Assembly: GCA_963769885.1 (NCBI GenBank)
Contig: CAVYNH010000007.1
Coordinates: 256,001-320,000 of the forward strand
Reading direction: 5' to 3'
DNA: 64,000 nucleotides
Source: Methanobacteriota archaeon
GTDB taxonomy: Archaea > Thermoplasmatota > E2 > DHVEG-1
Shown here: positions 5,307 to 22,780 of the stretch, piece by piece
How the letters are laid out: every line of letters starts with the position of its first letter
Position numbering within the stretch: position 1 is the first letter of the stretch
The notes under the pieces: generated by a model
Told to the model about the DNA's origin: nothing
Database searches by the model: none
Seen by the model: only the letters and a program-made list of their open reading frames with translations
Translations under genes and position numbers: made by a program

Positions 5307-6266
5307 ATGGGAAAAGAGAAGCAGCCTGAGTCGCCGATACAAGGTCTTCCTGGTGTTGGCCCTGCCATCGCGGAAAAGCTAGTCGAAGCCGGGTTTTCAG
5401 ATATGATGACCATCGCGGTCTCGTCCCCCAAAGAGCTGGCGGACGTCGCGGAGATCGGGGAGGCTACAGCTACCAAGATCATCCAGGCCGCGCGAAAGCA
5501 GGCCGACATCGGCAGTTTTGAAACCGGCGTCGCCCTGCTCGAACGTCGGTCGCGCATCGGCTGCATTACCACCGGATCCAAATCATTCAACGAACTCATG
5601 GGCGGCAAGGGATTCGAAACTCAGGCGATCACCGAGTTGTTCGGCGAGTTCGGCTCAGGGAAGACGCAGCTGGCGCTCCAGCTCTGCCTGAACGTGCAAC
5701 TTCCGCCAGAGAAGGGCGGCTTGGACAGCCAAGTCTTCTTCATTGATACCGAGAACACGTTCCGACCGGACCGGATCACCCAGATGGCAGAGGGCCTGGA
5801 GATGGACCCCTCGGAGGCCCTGCAGCGAATCCATGTCGCCCGAGCGTATAACTCCAGCCATCAGATGCTGCTCGTAGAGAAGGTCAAGGAGCTGTCCAAG
5901 GAGTATCCCGCGCGGCTCCTCATCGTCGACTCGCTCACCTCGCATTTCCGCGCGGAGTACGTGGGACGGGGGGCACTGGCGGACCGGCAGCAGAAGCTCA
6001 ATAGGCACATGCATGATCTCCTCAGGTGGGGGGACATCAACAACGGCGCAGTTGTCGTCACCAACCAGGTCGCGGCGAAGCCAGACGCGTTCTTCGGGGA
6101 CCCGACCCGACCCATCGGCGGCCACATCGTCGGTCACACCGCGACGTTCCGTTTGTACCTGCGGAAGAGCAAGGGTAATAAGCGCATCGCCCGGCTCATC
6201 GACTCCCCGCATCTGCCGGAGGGCGAAGCCGTCTTCTCCGTCAACCAAACCGGAATCGGGGATTAA
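5307..6266 (+). CDS. radA: DNA repair and recombination protein RadA
   Basis: N-terminal HhH (LPGVGP), [55 protein letters not shown]. Confidence 0.98.
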
Positions 6267-6313: not shown

Positions 6314-7075
6314 CTACGCCTTCTCATCATAGCCATTGACCGTGGCGCAGGCGACCCCGGGGCGTGCTGGAGACGGCATCTTCCTAGTTTTCATGATGAC
6401 TCTTTTCGCGAGGGCGGAGGTGAGGAACACGCAGCCGACGCCTGCGAGAAACGCGGGGTCGACTAACACGGCCTTCTGACCAAGGAAGATGAGGGCGGCA
6501 ACCGTAAACGCAAGCCCACCCATGAGAATGCCGCTGACCTCAAGGGGCAACTCGAAGCGCCCCAGCCGCATCATCATCGGACGACCCAACCGCTGTTCAA
6601 CCTTGTCCAAGCGTTCCGTGACAGAGGTCGCAAGCTGCGTTGAATCCGTTTTCACTGCCTCGTGAAGCGCCGCAGTCTCCGTCATCGATTTTTCGACAGC
6701 GGTGAGGCGGTCTGCGGTCGAGCCGAGCCTGACGCCATGGTCTTGGACGGATGTCTGCAAGAGGGTGAGCTCCTGGTCAAGGACCCGGGCCCATGCCTTC
6801 ACATTCATGGCATGGTTCTTTCGTCCCTCTCCGAGAAGTCGCTGCACGGGCCCGCCCGTCTCCTCCCTCATTTCAGGGCCGGAGAGTGGCGCGACGAGAG
6901 ACAGCCTTGTTTCGACGACGGCCAATCGCCCGCTGATGCTCGCAATCATCTGTTCGTTCTTCTGCATCCAGCTATGAAGCGCGGTGATGCTTTCCTGTGG
7001 CGGCTCAACAGCCTTCTGGCTTTGAGACGGGTGGGGGAATATCCTCATCGCCTTTCCCTTCCTAAAAAATCTCAT
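6314..7075 (-). CDS. Coiled-coil membrane protein (two C-terminal TM helices)
   Basis: Heptad-rich N-terminal region and two hydrophobic segments; starts 3 nt after the pilin-like gene, so likely co-transcribed. Confidence 0.6.
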   Translation of the reverse strand: MRFFRKGKAMRIFPHPSQSQKAVEPPQESITALHSWMQKNEQMIASISGRLAVVETRLSLVAPLSGPEMREETGGPVQRLLGEGRKNHAMNVKAWARVLDQELTLLQTSVQDHGVRLGSTADRLTAVEKSMTETAALHEAVKTDSTQLATSVTERLDKVEQRLGRPMMMRLGRFELPLEVSGILMGGLAFTVAALIFLGQKAVLVDPAFLAGVGCVFLTSALAKRVIMKTRKMPSPARPGVACATVNGYDEKA

Positions 7076-18498: not shown

Positions 18499-19103
18499 AT
18501 TTTTTGTCGCGGCGGGCAGGCGTCCGCCTGCCCCTTTACCGCGCGACAGGAGTACAAAAACTTATGGAGAGTGTATCGAGCGGCAGCTCTAAAAAGGTTG
18601 CGGGTGACACCCGCAACAACTGGGTGACCATAATGTTCCCGACACACAAAAGGTACCGGAACTTCCGAAAACAAAGCCACATCGACACCTGCACCCAGAC
18701 GTTCCACGACCTGGAACGCCTTGGGTTCGAGTTCGGCGAATTCGGATTCGCCGAAACCCATGTACATCTCCAGGTCAACGTTCCCAAGCGGTACTCCATT
18801 GAAACCGCTGAGATTATTCTCAAGTCTTACACCTCCCGGAGAATGTTCCAGGCTCACCCCGGGTTCCACAAACGCTACCCCCGCGGGGGATTCTGGAGCG
18901 GGTACGAGCACCACGAGTCCACCGGATTGACCAGCCTTGATGAATCCTCAGCCTACCTGCGCGATCAGCAACACCATCACAACGTGACCATCATCGACAA
19001 CCGACAACAACGCCTGACCGCCGAGTGAGATACGGCAATGCCCAAGAGGGCTTGCCGAGGAACGAAGGCGGAACGGGGTCATAGGGGCGCAGCCCCTATT
19101 TCA
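18499..19103 (+). mobile_element. IS200/IS605-family insertion sequence (TnpA only, about 600 bp)
   Basis: Y1 transposase flanked by subterminal hairpins. Left: GGGCAGGCG-TC-CGCCTGCCC (18514-18533). Right: CGGCAA-T-GCCC-AAGA-GGGC-TTGCCG (19033-19057) and ATAGGGGC-GCA-GCCCCTAT (19081-19099). Ends approximate. Confidence 0.75.
18564..19028 (+). CDS. tnpA: Y1 (HUH) transposase TnpA
   Basis: HVHL (HUH), LKSYTSRR, FWSGY, catalytic Tyr in AYLRDQ; AGGAG RBS. Confidence 0.9.
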   Translation: MESVSSGSSKKVAGDTRNNWVTIMFPTHKRYRNFRKQSHIDTCTQTFHDLERLGFEFGEFGFAETHVHLQVNVPKRYSIETAEIILKSYTSRRMFQAHPGFHKRYPRGGFWSGYEHHESTGLTSLDESSAYLRDQQHHHNVTIIDNRQQRLTAE

Positions 19104-19925
19104 TTATCCTTCCTGGACGGGGGATCGCCAGTCGAGGCCAGGGGTGCGGATGCCGAGTTTGGGGACGAGTGGGAAGCGGCGTTTGTGCTGGCTACGTACA
19201 CGCATAACGCGGATACGTTCCACCTGAGCTTTGGTGGCATCGGCTTCTCGTTGGATAAGAGGGGGTGGGAGTTTACAATCGAGGCCGAAGAGAATCTCAT
19301 CGAGGGTTTCGTATTTCATTTTGAGTTCGCTTTCGTCAGTCTGGCCAATCCAAAGGCCGGCGGTAGGCGGTTTGGTAATGATGGGGTTGGGGATGCCCAG
19401 GTACTTTGCGAGTTGGTAGATCTGGGACTTGTAGAGGTCGCCGATGGGCTGGATGTCGACGCCGCCGTCGCCGTATTTGGTGAAGTAGCCGACGAGTATC
19501 TCTGATTTGTTGCTGGTTCCGCAGACGAGGCGGTGGGTCTGGTTGGCGTAGGTGAAGAGGAGGATCATGCGGGCGCGTGCCTTGATGTTGGCGAGGGTCT
19601 TTTTTGGTGGGCGTCTACCGAGAACGGTGGTGTAGGTATCGATGATGGGGGTGATGTCGATGGTGGTGCAAGGAATCTTGTATTTTGTTATGATGAGTTT
19701 TTGGTGGCGTCGGTCGCTTTGGGGGGTGGCTTCGTCCGGCATGAAGAGGCAGTGGACATGCCTGCGGCCGAGGGCTTGGGTGGCGAGTAAGGCCACGACT
19801 GCGCTGTCGACGCCGCCGGACAGTCCGATGATGACGCCGTTTGCGCCGGCTTGGCGGACGTAGGTTTTGATGAAGTCTTTGATGACGATGCTTGCTTCTT
19901 CGGGGTTGATGGTGGGGATGGTCAT
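19104..19925 (-). CDS. nadE: NH3-dependent NAD+ synthetase
   Basis: GLSGGVDSA, NIKARARM, GTSNKSE, GYFTKYGDG, KPPTAGLW.GQTDE. Confidence 0.97.
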   Translation of the reverse strand: MTIPTINPEEASIVIKDFIKTYVRQAGANGVIIGLSGGVDSAVVALLATQALGRRHVHCLFMPDEATPQSDRRHQKLIITKYKIPCTTIDITPIIDTYTTVLGRRPPKKTLANIKARARMILLFTYANQTHRLVCGTSNKSEILVGYFTKYGDGGVDIQPIGDLYKSQIYQLAKYLGIPNPIITKPPTAGLWIGQTDESELKMKYETLDEILFGLDCKLPPPLIQREADATKAQVERIRVMRVRSQHKRRFPLVPKLGIRTPGLDWRSPVQEG

Positions 19926-21256
19926 CGTTGCCAGGTCTCCAGGGATTCTTTGGTGATTTCCATGGCTTGGGTGAGTATTTTATTGTCAACGGGGGAGAAG
20001 GAGGCGCGGGCGATGGCGAAGGGGATGCGGCGGAGGTAGTCGCTCATTCTGAGGTCGCGGCGGAGGGTGGTGTTGATGTGGGTTTCGACGATGGTGTTCA
20101 TGTCTTGGAGGTAGCGTTCGACGGCGGTGTCGGTGGCGGTGATGGTGGGCTGGTGGGTGCGGGCGAGTTTGAGCCATTGGTCGTAGTAGTCGTGTTTGTC
20201 GACGGCGTCGCCGGCGCCGTAGAATTTTTTGCGGAAGAGGGCGAGGCGGTCTTCGCGGCTGATGTTTTCGACTCTGACAACGAGGGCGCAGCGGCTGAGG
20301 AGCAAGGGTGAGAGTCCGATGTCGCTGAGTGCTTGTTTGCCGAAGACCTTGCTGCGTGGGTTGGCGAAGGCGATCATGATGAACTGGCTTTCGATGGTCT
20401 GGTGGAGTTTCGAGGAGTGGACGCTGCATTTGCCGTTGCTGAGGAGTTCGTAGCAGTATTCGATGTCATCTTCGGGGATTTTGTCGAATTCGTCGACGAG
20501 GACGAGCTTGTGGTCGGCGTGGGGGAGGGCGCCGAGTTCGCCGGTGCCGAGGTGGCAGACCAAGCCACTTCGTGTGGTGTTGGCGCCGATGGTCATGACG
20601 TCGGTGAAGTCGGTGCTGATGATTTCTTTGGCCATGGTTTTGCTGCTGCCGGGTTCGCCGATGATGAGGGAGTGAACGGGCTCATCGAAGGTGCTGAAGA
20701 GGCTGGTGGCGACGACTTTTTTCATGGTGTCGTTGCCTTGGATGTCGTGGAAGACGTTCTGCCAGAAGCCGTCGAAGCCGCGGTTTTGTGCGAACTGACG
20801 GAGGTCGTCTTCGGGCAGGGTGATGCCGTGTCGTTCGTGGTCTTGGAGGTGTTTGGCTTCGAGGATTTCTCTGAGTCCTTCGGCTTTGGTGATGACTTGG
20901 GTGAAGGTCGGTGATTTTCTGGTGAGCCGGAGGATGTTGCCTTCGATGCTAAGGGCGGTGTTTCCCCAGCCAACCGCATAGACGTCGAGGGCGTTGAGGA
21001 CGGATTTGATGACGGCTCTGTCGCGTTTTTTGACGGTGATTTCGACGAGGTCGTCGGTGGTGATGGTGATGTCGAGGATGTTTTGGTTCGCGAGGATGTT
21101 GCGGGCGCGCTGGATGAGCATGGTGCCTTTGCCTGGGCCCATGCCTAGCGATTGCACTGAGCTGAGGGCGATCTGTTCGAGGGTGGTAATGCCCATGCTC
21201 TCCAGTTTCTTCCGGTCGGAAGGGATGACTCCGAGCATGGTGAGGGCGTCTTCCAT
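19922..21256 (-). CDS. MCM-like AAA+ ATPase with RadA-like HhH N-terminal domain
   Basis: Probable start ATG 21256 (444 aa). GEPGSSKT, GAL..AD..LVLVDEFDK, AFANP, PLLLSR. No Zn-finger/OB N-terminal domain. Confidence 0.8.
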   Translation of the reverse strand: MEDALTMLGVIPSDRKKLESMGITTLEQIALSSVQSLGMGPGKGTMLIQRARNILANQNILDITITTDDLVEITVKKRDRAVIKSVLNALDVYAVGWGNTALSIEGNILRLTRKSPTFTQVITKAEGLREILEAKHLQDHERHGITLPEDDLRQFAQNRGFDGFWQNVFHDIQGNDTMKKVVATSLFSTFDEPVHSLIIGEPGSSKTMAKEIISTDFTDVMTIGANTTRSGLVCHLGTGELGALPHADHKLVLVDEFDKIPEDDIEYCYELLSNGKCSVHSSKLHQTIESQFIMIAFANPRSKVFGKQALSDIGLSPLLLSRCALVVRVENISREDRLALFRKKFYGAGDAVDKHDYYDQWLKLARTHQPTITATDTAVERYLQDMNTIVETHINTTLRRDLRMSDYLRRIPFAIARASFSPVDNKILTQAMEITKESLETWQR

Positions 21257-21363: not shown

Positions 21364-22419
21364 CTAGCCCTCGGTTTGAGATTGAAGGGCTAGGTCGCGT
21401 TCGATTGTTTGGAGGCAATAGGGATCGGCGTGCGATTGCTCTGTGTGTGCGGCGGAGACGCAGAGGCAGCCGCCTTTGCAGGAGGCGCCAAAACGACAGC
21501 CTTGACAGGTAGCGTTTAGGTCTTTTTTAGTGAACTCTCGGTTATAGGTGAAGCAGGCGGGGTCGTTCCAGATCGAAGTCAGCGATTGGGAAAGAAGGGA
21601 GCCTTCTATGAACGATGGTGGGAGGGAGAGGCATCCTTTCACGGCACCGTCGCTTTGGATGCCGAGGTTGCTGATGCCGGCCTGGCAGCCGATCCAGCGA
21701 GGGAGGATGTTGATGTTGGGAAGTATCTTTGAATTGTAGCCGAAGCAGTGGGCGCCGACGATGGGGAGTTCTTTCATGCTGTATTGGTTGCGCGTGCCGG
21801 CGATGAAGAGTGCGACGGCGTAGAATTCATCTTTGGAGAGGGTGAGGTTTGGTGGGCATCGGCCGATGGCTGTGGCAACCTGGAGTTGCCATGCGACGCC
21901 GGTGTTAAGGAGGTGCTGTCGGAGGAGAGGGAGTTCGGGGAGGTTTTGTTTGTTGACGGTGGTGACAACGCTGACGCGGATTCCCGCATCTGTGAGGAGG
22001 GGCATGACTTCGAAGCATTTTGCAAATGAGCCGGGCCTTTGTCTGATGGCGTCGTGGGTCGCGGGTGTTCCTCCGTCGATGCTGAGGGCGATCGTGCGGA
22101 AATCGAGTGTGCGGAGTTTTGTTATAATCTCTGGGGTGATAATCCAGCCGTTGGTGACCATGCTTGGCATAATCCCGTGGTCTTTGATGTCGGAGGCGAC
22201 AGCGTACCAGTCGGGGTAGAGGAGGGGTTCACCGCCGAGTAGGGAGATTTTCTTGGTGCCGAGATCTGCGAGTTCTTTGGTTGTGCGGTTCCAGATGGCG
22301 GTCGGGAGTTCCTTGGTCCGTGGTCGGCCGGCTGCAGAGCCGCAGTGGATGCAGTTCATGTTGCAGCGTAGGCTGAGTTCATACGCAACGGCAAAGGGCG
22401 TGTAATGTTTCCATTTCAT
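21364..22419 (-). CDS. Radical SAM/SPASM protein (putative peptide maturase)
   Basis: CNMNCIHC, GGEPLL, SIDG..HD.IR..GSF; SPASM cysteines GCQAG...GC...CQGC.....CKGGC...C. Start ATG 22419. Confidence 0.93.
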   Translation of the reverse strand: MKWKHYTPFAVAYELSLRCNMNCIHCGSAAGRPRTKELPTAIWNRTTKELADLGTKKISLLGGEPLLYPDWYAVASDIKDHGIMPSMVTNGWIITPEIITKLRTLDFRTIALSIDGGTPATHDAIRQRPGSFAKCFEVMPLLTDAGIRVSVVTTVNKQNLPELPLLRQHLLNTGVAWQLQVATAIGRCPPNLTLSKDEFYAVALFIAGTRNQYSMKELPIVGAHCFGYNSKILPNINILPRWIGCQAGISNLGIQSDGAVKGCLSLPPSFIEGSLLSQSLTSIWNDPACFTYNREFTKKDLNATCQGCRFGASCKGGCLCVSAAHTEQSHADPYCLQTIERDLALQSQTEG

Positions 22420-22456
22420 GGTGTGGTTCACCTTTTGTTTGAATTTGTTTGTCGGA

Positions 22457-22486
22457 TGGCCGGTGTCCCTTGAGGGGCACCGGTCA
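22457..22486. other. Intergenic GC-rich stem-loop between small ORF and radical SAM gene
   Basis: TGGCCGGTGTCCCT-TG-AGGGGCACCGGTCA, a 14-bp inverted repeat with two imperfect pairs. Confidence 0.7.
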
Positions 22487-22495
22487 CGGTTCTGT

Positions 22496-22780
22496 TTAGA
22501 ATCGGCCGAACATCTGGTAGATGGCTTGGCCGATGTTGTCGAAGTCCTGGGTGCTGACACTGTGGTAGCGTCCTGGGGTGGCGAGGATGAGTGATGAGAC
22601 GGCGCCAAGGACGGTGACGGCAAGGATGAGCAGACTGTTGATGAGCCGTCTATTGCGTCGAATGGTGCGGTTAACTGCATCTTTCGTCATCCCTAATTTT
22701 TCTCCTAGTGTGTACAGCGTTGGTGATGTCAATCCGGTCTGGATTGTGCCTGCCTTTGTCTCTTCATATGGGTTTTCCAT
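22496..22780 (-). CDS. Small protein (94 aa), candidate radical SAM substrate or precursor peptide
   Basis: GGAGG RBS; directly upstream of and co-oriented with rSAM/SPASM; one hydrophobic helix and C-terminal TPGRYHSVSTQDF segment. Confidence 0.65.
   Translation of the reverse strand: MENPYEETKAGTIQTGLTSPTLYTLGEKLGMTKDAVNRTIRRNRRLINSLLILAVTVLGAVSSLILATPGRYHSVSTQDFDNIGQAIYQMFGRF

Follow-up and report, generated by a model that had tools for sequence, protein, structure and literature searches.

An MCM-clade AAA+ protein with a predicted helix-hairpin-helix head in Thermoplasmatota archaea

In archaea and eukaryotes the motor at the centre of replication is MCM, whose N-terminal tier of OB and zinc domains is considered necessary for assembling the ring, for loading it onto DNA and for its regulation. 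Proteins of the MCM clade form rings in which the ATP sites lie at the subunit interfaces, with an arginine finger contributed in trans, and in which pore hairpins move the DNA. Replication is not the only process associated with these motors, as MCM8 and MCM9 are non-replicative MCM paralogues involved in recombination and repair. This work concerns an MCM-clade protein with a different N-terminal region, encoded in a 64,000-nucleotide stretch of a Thermoplasmatota genome (assembly GCA_963769885.1, contig CAVYNH010000007.1, positions 256,001 to 320,000; the whole stretch is referred to as the window, and coordinates without a locus identifier are window positions). The gene lies at 19922..21256 on the minus strand, and its product, termed here HhH-MCM, joins an MCM-type ATPase module to a predicted helix-hairpin-helix (HhH) head that resembles the N-terminal domain (NTD) of the Rad51/RadA recombinases.

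Other departures from the replicative architecture have been described. In BrxL, DNA-binding domains precede an AAA+ module of the MCM type (PMC12839542; structure 8EMC, PMC10164562); the head consists of a sigma-HTH and an OB domain, and the Lon-like C-terminus that is usual in BrxL is missing from the Type-4 form (PMC12839542). In archaea, divergent extra MCM copies commonly derive from integrated elements (PMC3914693; PMC6563490), and Raymann and colleagues draw a line between copies that evolve slowly, keep their synteny and are inherited vertically and divergent ones whose contexts vary (PMC3914693). Short MCM-domain proteins (~380-430 aa, with MCM and MCM_lid domains) and Cch of SCCmec (5DGK) are likewise MCM-related, truncated, often carried by mobile elements and devoid of the canonical N-terminal domain. 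Full-text searches of the literature found no description of an HhH-headed MCM, the nearest described cases being the extra MCM copies from integrated elements and BrxL; most homologues are named 'hypothetical protein' or 'MCM2-family' in the databases.

The ATPase module and the N-terminal head

The coding sequence of HhH-MCM (19925-21256, protein P0002) is open only on the minus strand and comprises 444 codons followed by a TGA stop codon at 19922-19924. The gene is supported by its translation and by >400 full-length homologues, and its start agrees with an alignment of homologues, all of which begin at the MEDALT-type N-terminus; a longer TTG-initiated frame that reaches 21418 and overlaps the upstream gene has no homologue support.

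HhH-MCM carries a complete MCM-type ATPase module and is a member of the MCM branch within the pre-sensor-II-insert clade of AAA+ proteins. Pfam MCM (PF00493) matches residues 157-335 with 54.2 bits (cut-off 23.3, E 1.4e-14), Mg_chelatase (19.3 bits) and AAA_5 stay below their Pfam cut-offs, and the NCBIfam model of full-length MCM (NF040949) aligns with the AAA+ part alone, scoring 36.3 bits against a cut-off of 940. Only MCM chains are among the 60 matches listed by phmmer against PDB sequences, archaeal MCMs being the best (E ~1e-9). Foldseek, used with an AlphaFold2 (AF2) model built on 17 homologues (mean predicted local distance difference test, pLDDT, of 87.5), returns MCM chains throughout among the matches listed (best 50, E ~1e-16). 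In a VIA-align comparison that was exhaustive against 48,161 representative chains, ranks 1-11 are MCM entries (Z 22.0-27.6, 266-298 residues aligned), including the PfMCM AAA+ domain, M. acidophilum MCM, Mcm2-7 subunits, MCM8/9 and an M. kandleri homologue. Below them stand RavA (Z 17.1), BchI (16.3), BrxL (15.6), ComM (15.4), a MoxR protein (15.1), Lon (9.6) and Cch (9.2), so that the MCM scores exceed those of RavA, BchI, BrxL and ComM by 5-10 units. The viral MCM-type helicase family PHROG 10371 matches HhH-MCM as well, at 1.6e-19.

The alpha/beta core of the module, assigned from Pfam, phmmer, Foldseek, VIA-align and invariant residues, covers residues 169-351 (20204..20752, on the minus strand like all features of the gene). 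By motif position it contains Walker A (GEPGSSKT, residues 200-207, 20636-20659), Walker B (VLVDEFDK, residues 252-259, 20480-20503), sensor 1 (FANP, residues 297-300, 20357-20368) and the arginine finger (LLSRCAL, residues 319-325, 20282-20302). Alignment to SsoMCM locates a shortened helix-2 insert at 20525-20566, and the AF2 model a pre-sensor-1 beta-hairpin at residues 276-289 (20387-20428), whose tip is K or R in 14/17 homologues. The core is followed by a modelled helical lid (residues 352-444, 19925..20203) with helices at 355-365, 376-393, 402-418 and 425-440, where the chain ends; the VIA alignments to MCMs extend to residue 444, and the lid contains a candidate sensor-2 segment (TLRRDLR, residues 397-403, 20048-20068, by motif position). 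Judged over 17 diverse homologues with identities down to 31%, residues K206, D255, E256, D258, K259, N299, P300, S321, R322, R400, D401 and R403 are invariant. The AF2 model contains neither an OB or zinc domain nor a winged helix.

When compared with the replicative MCMs (SsoMCM 3F9V/6MII, the PfMCM AAA+ domain 4R7Z, M. acidophilum MCM 8Q67 and Mcm2-7), the AAA+ fold is alike, with Z up to 27.6 and ~22-24% identity over ~280-290 residues. Both have Walker A/B, ANP at sensor 1, an arginine finger of the SR type and the lid, and a pre-sensor-1 hairpin is predicted for HhH-MCM by the model, whereas HhH-MCM lacks the N-terminal helical/zinc/OB collar and the C-terminal winged helix and is 444 aa long instead of ~650-700. 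MCM8/MCM9 match the AAA+ fold with Z 25.8, no closer than any MCM; they are part of the canonical radiation of eukaryotic MCMs and still have an N-terminal OB/zinc domain, while HhH-MCM lies outside that radiation and lacks the domain. The short MCM-domain proteins, in which Pfam finds no HhH domain among those checked, form separate tree clades and have higher Pfam MCM and MCM_lid scores than HhH-MCM, and the structural match to Cch reaches Z 9.2 only.

The N-terminal residues 1-58 (21083..21256) are predicted by profile, hhalign, VIA-align and Foldseek comparisons to be an (HhH)2 domain, with recombinase heads as its nearest sequence relatives and a generic fold. Hairpin 1 is MGITTLEQIA (residues 21-30), and hairpin 2 is LGMGPGKGTMLI (residues 37-48), with a G-h-G turn (LGMG) that is not kept in all distant family members. 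Pfam and single-sequence methods give nothing significant on residues 1-125: Pfam reports IMS_HHH_1 alone (E 0.12) for the single N-terminal sequence, and HHH_5 is found in 2/16 homologues (best 0.0056) and is not significant for P0002. A profile of 16 homologues run against PDB sequences finds the human RAD51 NTD (1b22) first (E 4.4e-6), then other RAD51 chains (~2e-5), PfRad51 (3.9e-4) and SsoRadA (4.8e-4), followed by NusA acidic-repeat domains (7.5e-3) and DMC1, the best matches covering residues 3-58. The RadA encoded in the same window (5307-6266, plus strand) provides a direct comparison: BLASTP of residues 1-70 against its head gives no match, whereas hhalign of the family N-terminal profile gives a probability of 81%, E 1.2e-5 and 36% identity over 47 columns, and the similarity to the RadA head is therefore visible to profiles only. 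Although the NTDs of Rad51/RadA (1B22, SsoRadA 2BKE, M. voltae RadA 1XU4) are the best profile matches, the head of HhH-MCM differs from them in being joined to an AAA+ motor and not to a RecA core, and in a 4-residue deletion that precedes hairpin 2.

The AF2 model of residues 1-125 alone has a pLDDT of 91, and its head is a five-helix bundle that superposes on (HhH)2 domains with Z 7.8-9.7 and a root-mean-square deviation of 1.4-2.7 A over 53-62 residues. VIA-align places the AF1548 C-terminal domain first (Z 9.7), then NusA AR2 (8.5, 32% identity), POLQ (8.3) and yeast Rad51 (7.8), further matches including RAD51 paralogues, DisA, UvrC and the thumbs of Y-family polymerases. Other (HhH)2 domains (NusA AR2, AF1548 C-domain, POLQ) thus fit the fold of the head as well as Rad51/RadA. 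Foldseek gives no match at E <= 0.001 with the N-terminal model; its local matches to RadA/Rad51 NTDs have probabilities of 0.98-1.0, M. voltae RadA (1xu4) superposing at 1.8 A over 53 residues.

Between head and motor the AF2 model predicts a small alpha/beta domain (residues 59-115, 20912..21082, pLDDT ~90) made of two beta-hairpins around two helices, which occupies the place of the MCM OB/zinc collar and has in VIA-align weak and mixed matches only (ACT-like, RRF-like, BMC shell; Z ~5-6.4). Two long linker helices (residues 116-168, 20753..20911; H118-142 and H149-168 by DSSP on the AF2 model) lead from it into the AAA+ core. The head and the middle domain are kept in nearly all family members, including integrase-linked ones and those with extra N-terminal extensions. 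In some family members (P0131:112-143 and P0166:109-140) a short Cys-rich insert with sub-threshold B-box zinc-finger matches lies between the middle domain and the AAA+ part, and this insert may be a zinc module recalling the MCM zinc finger.

What the original prediction had read from the sequence at this locus is upheld by these results in each detail that was checked, namely a real gene, which lies on the minus strand, MCM signatures in the C-terminal part, where the last 300 aa form the module with its intact catalytic motifs, a shortened helix-2 insert, the lack of a zinc/OB collar and winged helix, and an HhH N-terminus, for which its alignment by eye to the window RadA is reproduced in the same register by hhalign. 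A core closer to Mg-chelatase, MoxR or Lon is not found, since VIA-align ranks the MCMs first (Z 22-27.6 versus at most 17.1). As to its description of the protein as a RadA-NTD/MCM chimera, the architecture stands and an origin of the head from RadA is not supported, given that NusA AR2, AF1548 and POLQ fit the generic fold equally well and that there is no sign of a recent fusion.

Family, distribution and gene context

More than 400 clusters match HhH-MCM over its full length, full-length homologues at 70-90% identity numbering more than 400, and most of them lie at 70-76% in Thermoplasmatota metagenome-assembled genomes (MAGs). In an exhaustive search of representatives ~29 clusters stay below 1e-30 and full-length matching persists to identities of 31-35%, past which there is a sharp fall to canonical MCMs at ~27% identity that align over the AAA+ part only. 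The boundary of the family is equally sharp with a hidden Markov model of the AAA+ region, in which members score at least 369 bits and the next protein 147. In trees of this region (~300 columns, long stems) the HhH-MCM clade has 100/100 support and a long stem, and it stands apart from the canonical archaeal and eukaryotic MCMs, including the MCM of the host genome itself, as well as from further short MCM-domain proteins, which form two groups. Within the family, terminal Thermoplasmatota branches measure 0.07-0.26 substitutions/site versus 0.4-1.4 for other members.

Among 301 evenly sampled genomes from the phylum, HhH-MCM is present in 40, always as a single copy, and has no match in the other 261, absences that refer to sampled, incomplete genomes. 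By taxonomic family it is found in 25/35 genomes of the window's own family, in 4/4 of a second family of the same order, in 9/9 of a family of another order in the class and in one genome of another class. The 10/35 genomes of the window's own family without a match are 86-95% complete, and in five of the match-less genomes looked at closely (four genera, 90-95% complete) the RIO-KH and metG-purC-nadE gene groups are intact and unlinked, with no remnant of HhH-MCM upstream of nadE or downstream of KH. A second scan with one genome per species gave 80 loci, all in records named Thermoplasmatota, Thermoplasmatales or Thermoplasmata or bearing labels for archaea that are broader or unspecific (Euryarchaeota, Methanobacteriota, uncultured archaeon); two of the records are closed MAG chromosomes.

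On contig 3, the genome to which the window belongs also encodes a canonical MCM (700 aa, 316 bits). The identities of HhH-MCM to its counterparts in five increasingly distant genomes are 74, 68, 55, 57 and 47%, with one reversal (G042, same order, 55%; G090, same class, 57%), and those of the replicative MCM in the same genomes are 82, 77, 67, 61 and 51%. HhH-MCM therefore diverges roughly in parallel to the replicative MCM and slightly faster, which fits vertical inheritance in Thermoplasmatota under strong constraint. One related genome (G214) encodes, besides HhH-MCM and an 82% orthologue of the host genome's MCM, a second full-length canonical MCM that is 57% identical to it (C85:44794-46821).

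The immediate downstream gene on the same strand is nadE (NAD synthase, 19104..19925; Pfam NAD_synthase, 7.5e-82), whose ATG overlaps the stop codon of HhH-MCM (ATGA, sequence CGATGACC), and the two genes are probably co-transcribed. The same-strand genes upstream encode first a radical-SAM/SPASM protein and farther on a KH-domain protein (Pno1/Krr1-like) and a RIO kinase. GC content is even across the region and neither tRNA nor integrase was seen near the gene in the window. The same-strand order RIO, KH, [HhH-MCM], nadE is conserved in many genera of one subclade: in the 80-species survey nadE adjoins the gene at 29/52 informative loci with at least 62% identity and at 0/18 below, and KH at 24/54 and 0/17, respectively. 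In other lineages the neighbours are unrelated housekeeping genes (M54 peptidase, methyltransferase, thioredoxin reductase, TBP, HflX, clostripain-like peptidase), and no neighbour conserved throughout the family was found. Because the linkage is limited to one subclade, the nadE overlap is a matter of local operon packing and not of a family-wide functional link.

Some further features of the locus are of note. The radical-SAM/SPASM gene (21364-22680, minus strand) lies between KH and HhH-MCM, which in related loci are usually separated by ~100 nt, has no counterpart within 4 kb of HhH-MCM in any of the 80 related loci, and looks like a lineage-specific insertion. Just downstream of nadE, before a gene for an 847-aa secreted-type protein, there is an ORF for an IS200-like Y1 transposase (18504-19028, plus strand; Pfam Y1_Tnp, 5.9e-11), 900 bp downstream of HhH-MCM. 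Across 10000-32000 a strong strand bias follows gene orientation, the GC skew being ~-0.3 in stretches of plus-strand genes and ~+0.3 in stretches of minus-strand genes; the coding strands are therefore markedly C-rich and A-rich.

Relatives at 31-50% identity, outside the phylum, are labelled, e.g., as Bathyarchaeota, 'Thaumarchaeota' and Alkanophagales/Aenigmatarchaeota MAGs, and their gene contexts are strikingly unlike that of the window gene. A four-gene module of an HTH regulator, a 333-340-aa protein without family, HhH-MCM and a tyrosine integrase (L025:1-4604; L026:1-4400; L027; L028) recurs on many ~4.5 kb contigs and in L026 abuts chromosomal nadC and cbiO/cbiQ genes; it looks like a small integrative element, and the absence of a terminal overlap in the 4.6-kb contig L025 leaves circularity unsupported. 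Another member, on a 32-kb metagenome contig (L130:1-15347), lies in a 15-kb stretch whose called genes are all on one strand and mostly without family, together with a LAGLIDADG protein and a pyrimidine-dimer glycosylase. This contig looks virus- or plasmid-like, and its MCM branches beside the Thermoplasmatota clade in the tree. At L132:832-5650 a DNA methyltransferase and HhH-MCM are enclosed by two Mutator-type transposase genes in opposite orientation, an arrangement that resembles a composite transposon. In one further locus the genes flanking HhH-MCM encode McrBC, a CARF protein and MazE/PIN. The apparently chromosomal locus L038 has an arcadin-1-like gene (6399-6731) directly upstream of HhH-MCM, its neighbours being Lhr, an SMC-like ATPase, a thermosome and an Rpr2 gene.

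In three divergent loci (L036:2792-10422, L131:955-7455 and L133:169-7030) HhH-MCM is part of a tightly packed cassette with the order X, BrxC/BrxD-like ATPase, Y, HhH-MCM and N6/N4 DNA methyltransferase (Type II-like), to which L133 adds a Cas4-like nuclease. X (340-400 aa) has no family, and Y (450-490 aa) has a conserved PD...EVE...K-like motif, possibly of the PD-(D/E)xK kind, and may be a nuclease; X, the ATPase, Y and the methyltransferase are each homologous across the three loci. PADLOC recognises no system that matches the cassette and gives weak partial matches to the candidate PDC-M37B, its BrxL model having no match to P0002 and a best E of 0.0087 among the relatives, so that HhH-MCM is assigned to no known defence family. 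The cassette is a candidate for a new restriction/BREX-like system. Like BrxL, HhH-MCM has N-terminal domains followed by an MCM-family AAA+ module, and genes for a DNA methyltransferase and a BrxC/D-like ATPase accompany its relatives; unlike that of BrxL, its head is HhH, the Lon domain usual in BrxL is missing and the structural similarity is limited to Z 15.6. The cassette also differs from BREX in having no PglZ or PglX-type gene, and in the window the neighbours are nadE and the radical-SAM gene. Profiles of X, the BrxC/D-like ATPase and Y found no match in the host genome (92% complete), in a search made without a positive control.

An accessory motor and its alternatives

The explanation that we favour, with a probability of roughly 0.6, is that HhH-MCM is an accessory ring-shaped DNA motor, derived from or shared with the gene pool of mobile elements and defence systems, and not a replicative helicase. 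In Thermoplasmatota the gene is single-copy, slow-evolving, chromosomal and coexists with a canonical MCM. By the criteria of Raymann and colleagues the Thermoplasmatota gene behaves like a cellular component and the rest of the family like mobile-element 'shell' genes, which favours the accessory-motor reading. That the gene is accessory and dispensable is indicated by the presence of the canonical MCM and from its not being found in several genera; the original prediction of a non-replicative paralogue is plausible on the same grounds, several of these genera belonging to the window's own family. Its placement of the gene in the chromosome and outside a provirus agrees with the even GC content and the lack of a nearby tRNA or integrase, the canonical MCM that it had suggested looking for is present, and the overlap with nadE can be read in the sequence, although as a matter of synteny the coupling to nadE holds in one subclade only. 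A more far-reaching version may be entertained tentatively, in which HhH-MCM would be a major and hitherto undescribed branch within the MCM superfamily, with archaeal mobile elements and the new cassette as its primary habitat; the ancestor of a large group of sediment Thermoplasmatota would have captured one lineage, which became a slowly evolving, stand-alone motor on the chromosome with a new housekeeping role in genome maintenance.

Several observations weigh against this explanation. The conserved neighbours in Thermoplasmatota (RIO kinase, KH, nadE, M54 peptidase, methyltransferase, thioredoxin reductase, TBP, HflX) do not point to a DNA process. The structural search with VIA-align does not single out Rad51/RadA for the head, and an (HhH)2 domain may also serve in protein interaction, as NusA AR2 shows. 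The helix-2 insert, one of the two DNA-moving hairpins expected of such a motor, is retained and is shorter than in MCMs that unwind DNA, by 8 residues, with two 4-residue gaps relative to SsoMCM in the phmmer alignment. Ring formation and DNA translocation are attributed to HhH-MCM because other MCM-clade proteins behave so, and we likewise infer its oligomeric state, its binding to DNA and any helicase activity. The backbone inside the family is a polytomy in the tree, and transfer may have gone from cell to element or from element to cell.

Among the alternatives, an MCM8/9-like helicase for recombination or fork restart, as proposed in the original prediction, would use the head to mimic or contact RadA filaments or duplex DNA and the motor to drive D-loop extension, branch migration or restart. 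Such a function would suit a protein whose head has its best sequence matches in Rad51/RadA NTDs and whose slow evolution fits housekeeping DNA maintenance in a cell where replication is already served by the canonical MCM, and the one distant member that adjoins the Lhr helicase and the SMC-like ATPase would be in agreement with it. Orthology to MCM8/9 is nevertheless not seen, the family being outside the canonical MCM clade and MCM9 matching it like any MCM; no recombination or repair gene is among the conserved Thermoplasmatota neighbours, the window RadA lies 14 kb off and outside the conserved gene order, and HhH-MCM is not found in several genera that must still recombine. This counterpart of MCM8/9 has no specific support and is unlikely, and the contexts of the relatives point to mobile elements and restriction/BREX-like cassettes instead of recombination. 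It is from these contexts that a motor for defence against mobile elements can be argued, i.e., a BrxL-like DNA-loading ATPase working in Thermoplasmatota alone or with partners encoded elsewhere: the three-locus cassette (X, BrxC/D-like, Y, HhH-MCM, methyltransferase), the member amid McrBC, CARF and MazE/PIN, the weak PDC-M37B matches and the parallel with BrxL as an MCM-type AAA+ protein with N-terminal DNA-binding domains (PMC12839542; PMC10164562) all speak for it. The slow, syntenic and single-copy gene of Thermoplasmatota is nonetheless unlike typical defence genes, neither a methyltransferase nor a nuclease adjoins it in the window, and the lack of a match to the BrxL model, like that of X, BrxC/D-like and Y homologues in the 92% complete host genome (in the search without positive control), makes a defence role in this lineage rather doubtful too.

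Considerably less probable is a ring that remodels proteins or ribonucleoproteins, e.g., in ribosome biogenesis together with the RIO kinase and the Pno1-like KH protein, the head docking a protein as NusA AR2 would. The RIO-KH-[HhH-MCM] order kept on one strand in a subclade, the presence of NusA AR2 among the best structural matches (32% identity, Z 8.5) and the action of the sister AAA+ groups MoxR and chelatase on proteins are compatible with such a ring. Against this, the RIO/KH linkage falls to 0/17 loci below 62% identity, RIO and KH remain together in genomes without HhH-MCM, the relatives adjoin DNA methyltransferases, nucleases and integrases, and to our knowledge DNA is the substrate of every characterised protein in the MCM branch proper. 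The gene could finally be what is left of an integrated plasmid or provirus, a replicative helicase that now has no role in the cell, as would be expected from the common origin of divergent extra archaeal MCMs (PMC3914693; PMC6563490), from the distant members linked to integrases or on a virus-like contig and from the IS200-like ORF 900 bp downstream. Its chromosomal neighbourhood is however common to many genera, with no integrase, tRNA or GC shift nearby, its identity of 70-76% within a family and 47-57% across classes tracks that of the replicative MCM, and its catalytic residues are all intact, for which reasons this explanation is disfavoured and retains very little probability.

As an accessory DNA motor, HhH-MCM would assemble into a ring like other MCM-clade proteins, ATP hydrolysis at the subunit interfaces moving DNA through the pore by means of the two hairpins. 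HhH domains give sequence-independent contact with duplex DNA in Rad51/RadA and in many repair enzymes, and the heads of HhH-MCM may grip the backbone of duplex DNA without sequence preference or, alternatively, dock a partner, while the small domain of residues 59-115 would replace the missing collar. The result would be a dispensable motor for genome maintenance or for the handling of foreign DNA, which this lineage may have taken from, or may share with, a pool of mobile-element and restriction/BREX-like systems.

In all, HhH-MCM is a natural and strongly conserved MCM-clade protein in which the whole OB/zinc tier is replaced by an HhH head and a 55-residue domain. As a small protein that is predicted with high confidence and present in many genomes, it should suit biochemistry and cryo-EM, and it would reveal what the AAA+ tier does alone. 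Through its relatives it leads to small integrative elements of uncultured archaea and to a cassette that is a candidate for a new defence system, and the family would illustrate the rise of non-replicative MCM paralogues in archaea, in parallel to MCM8/9 and BrxL.

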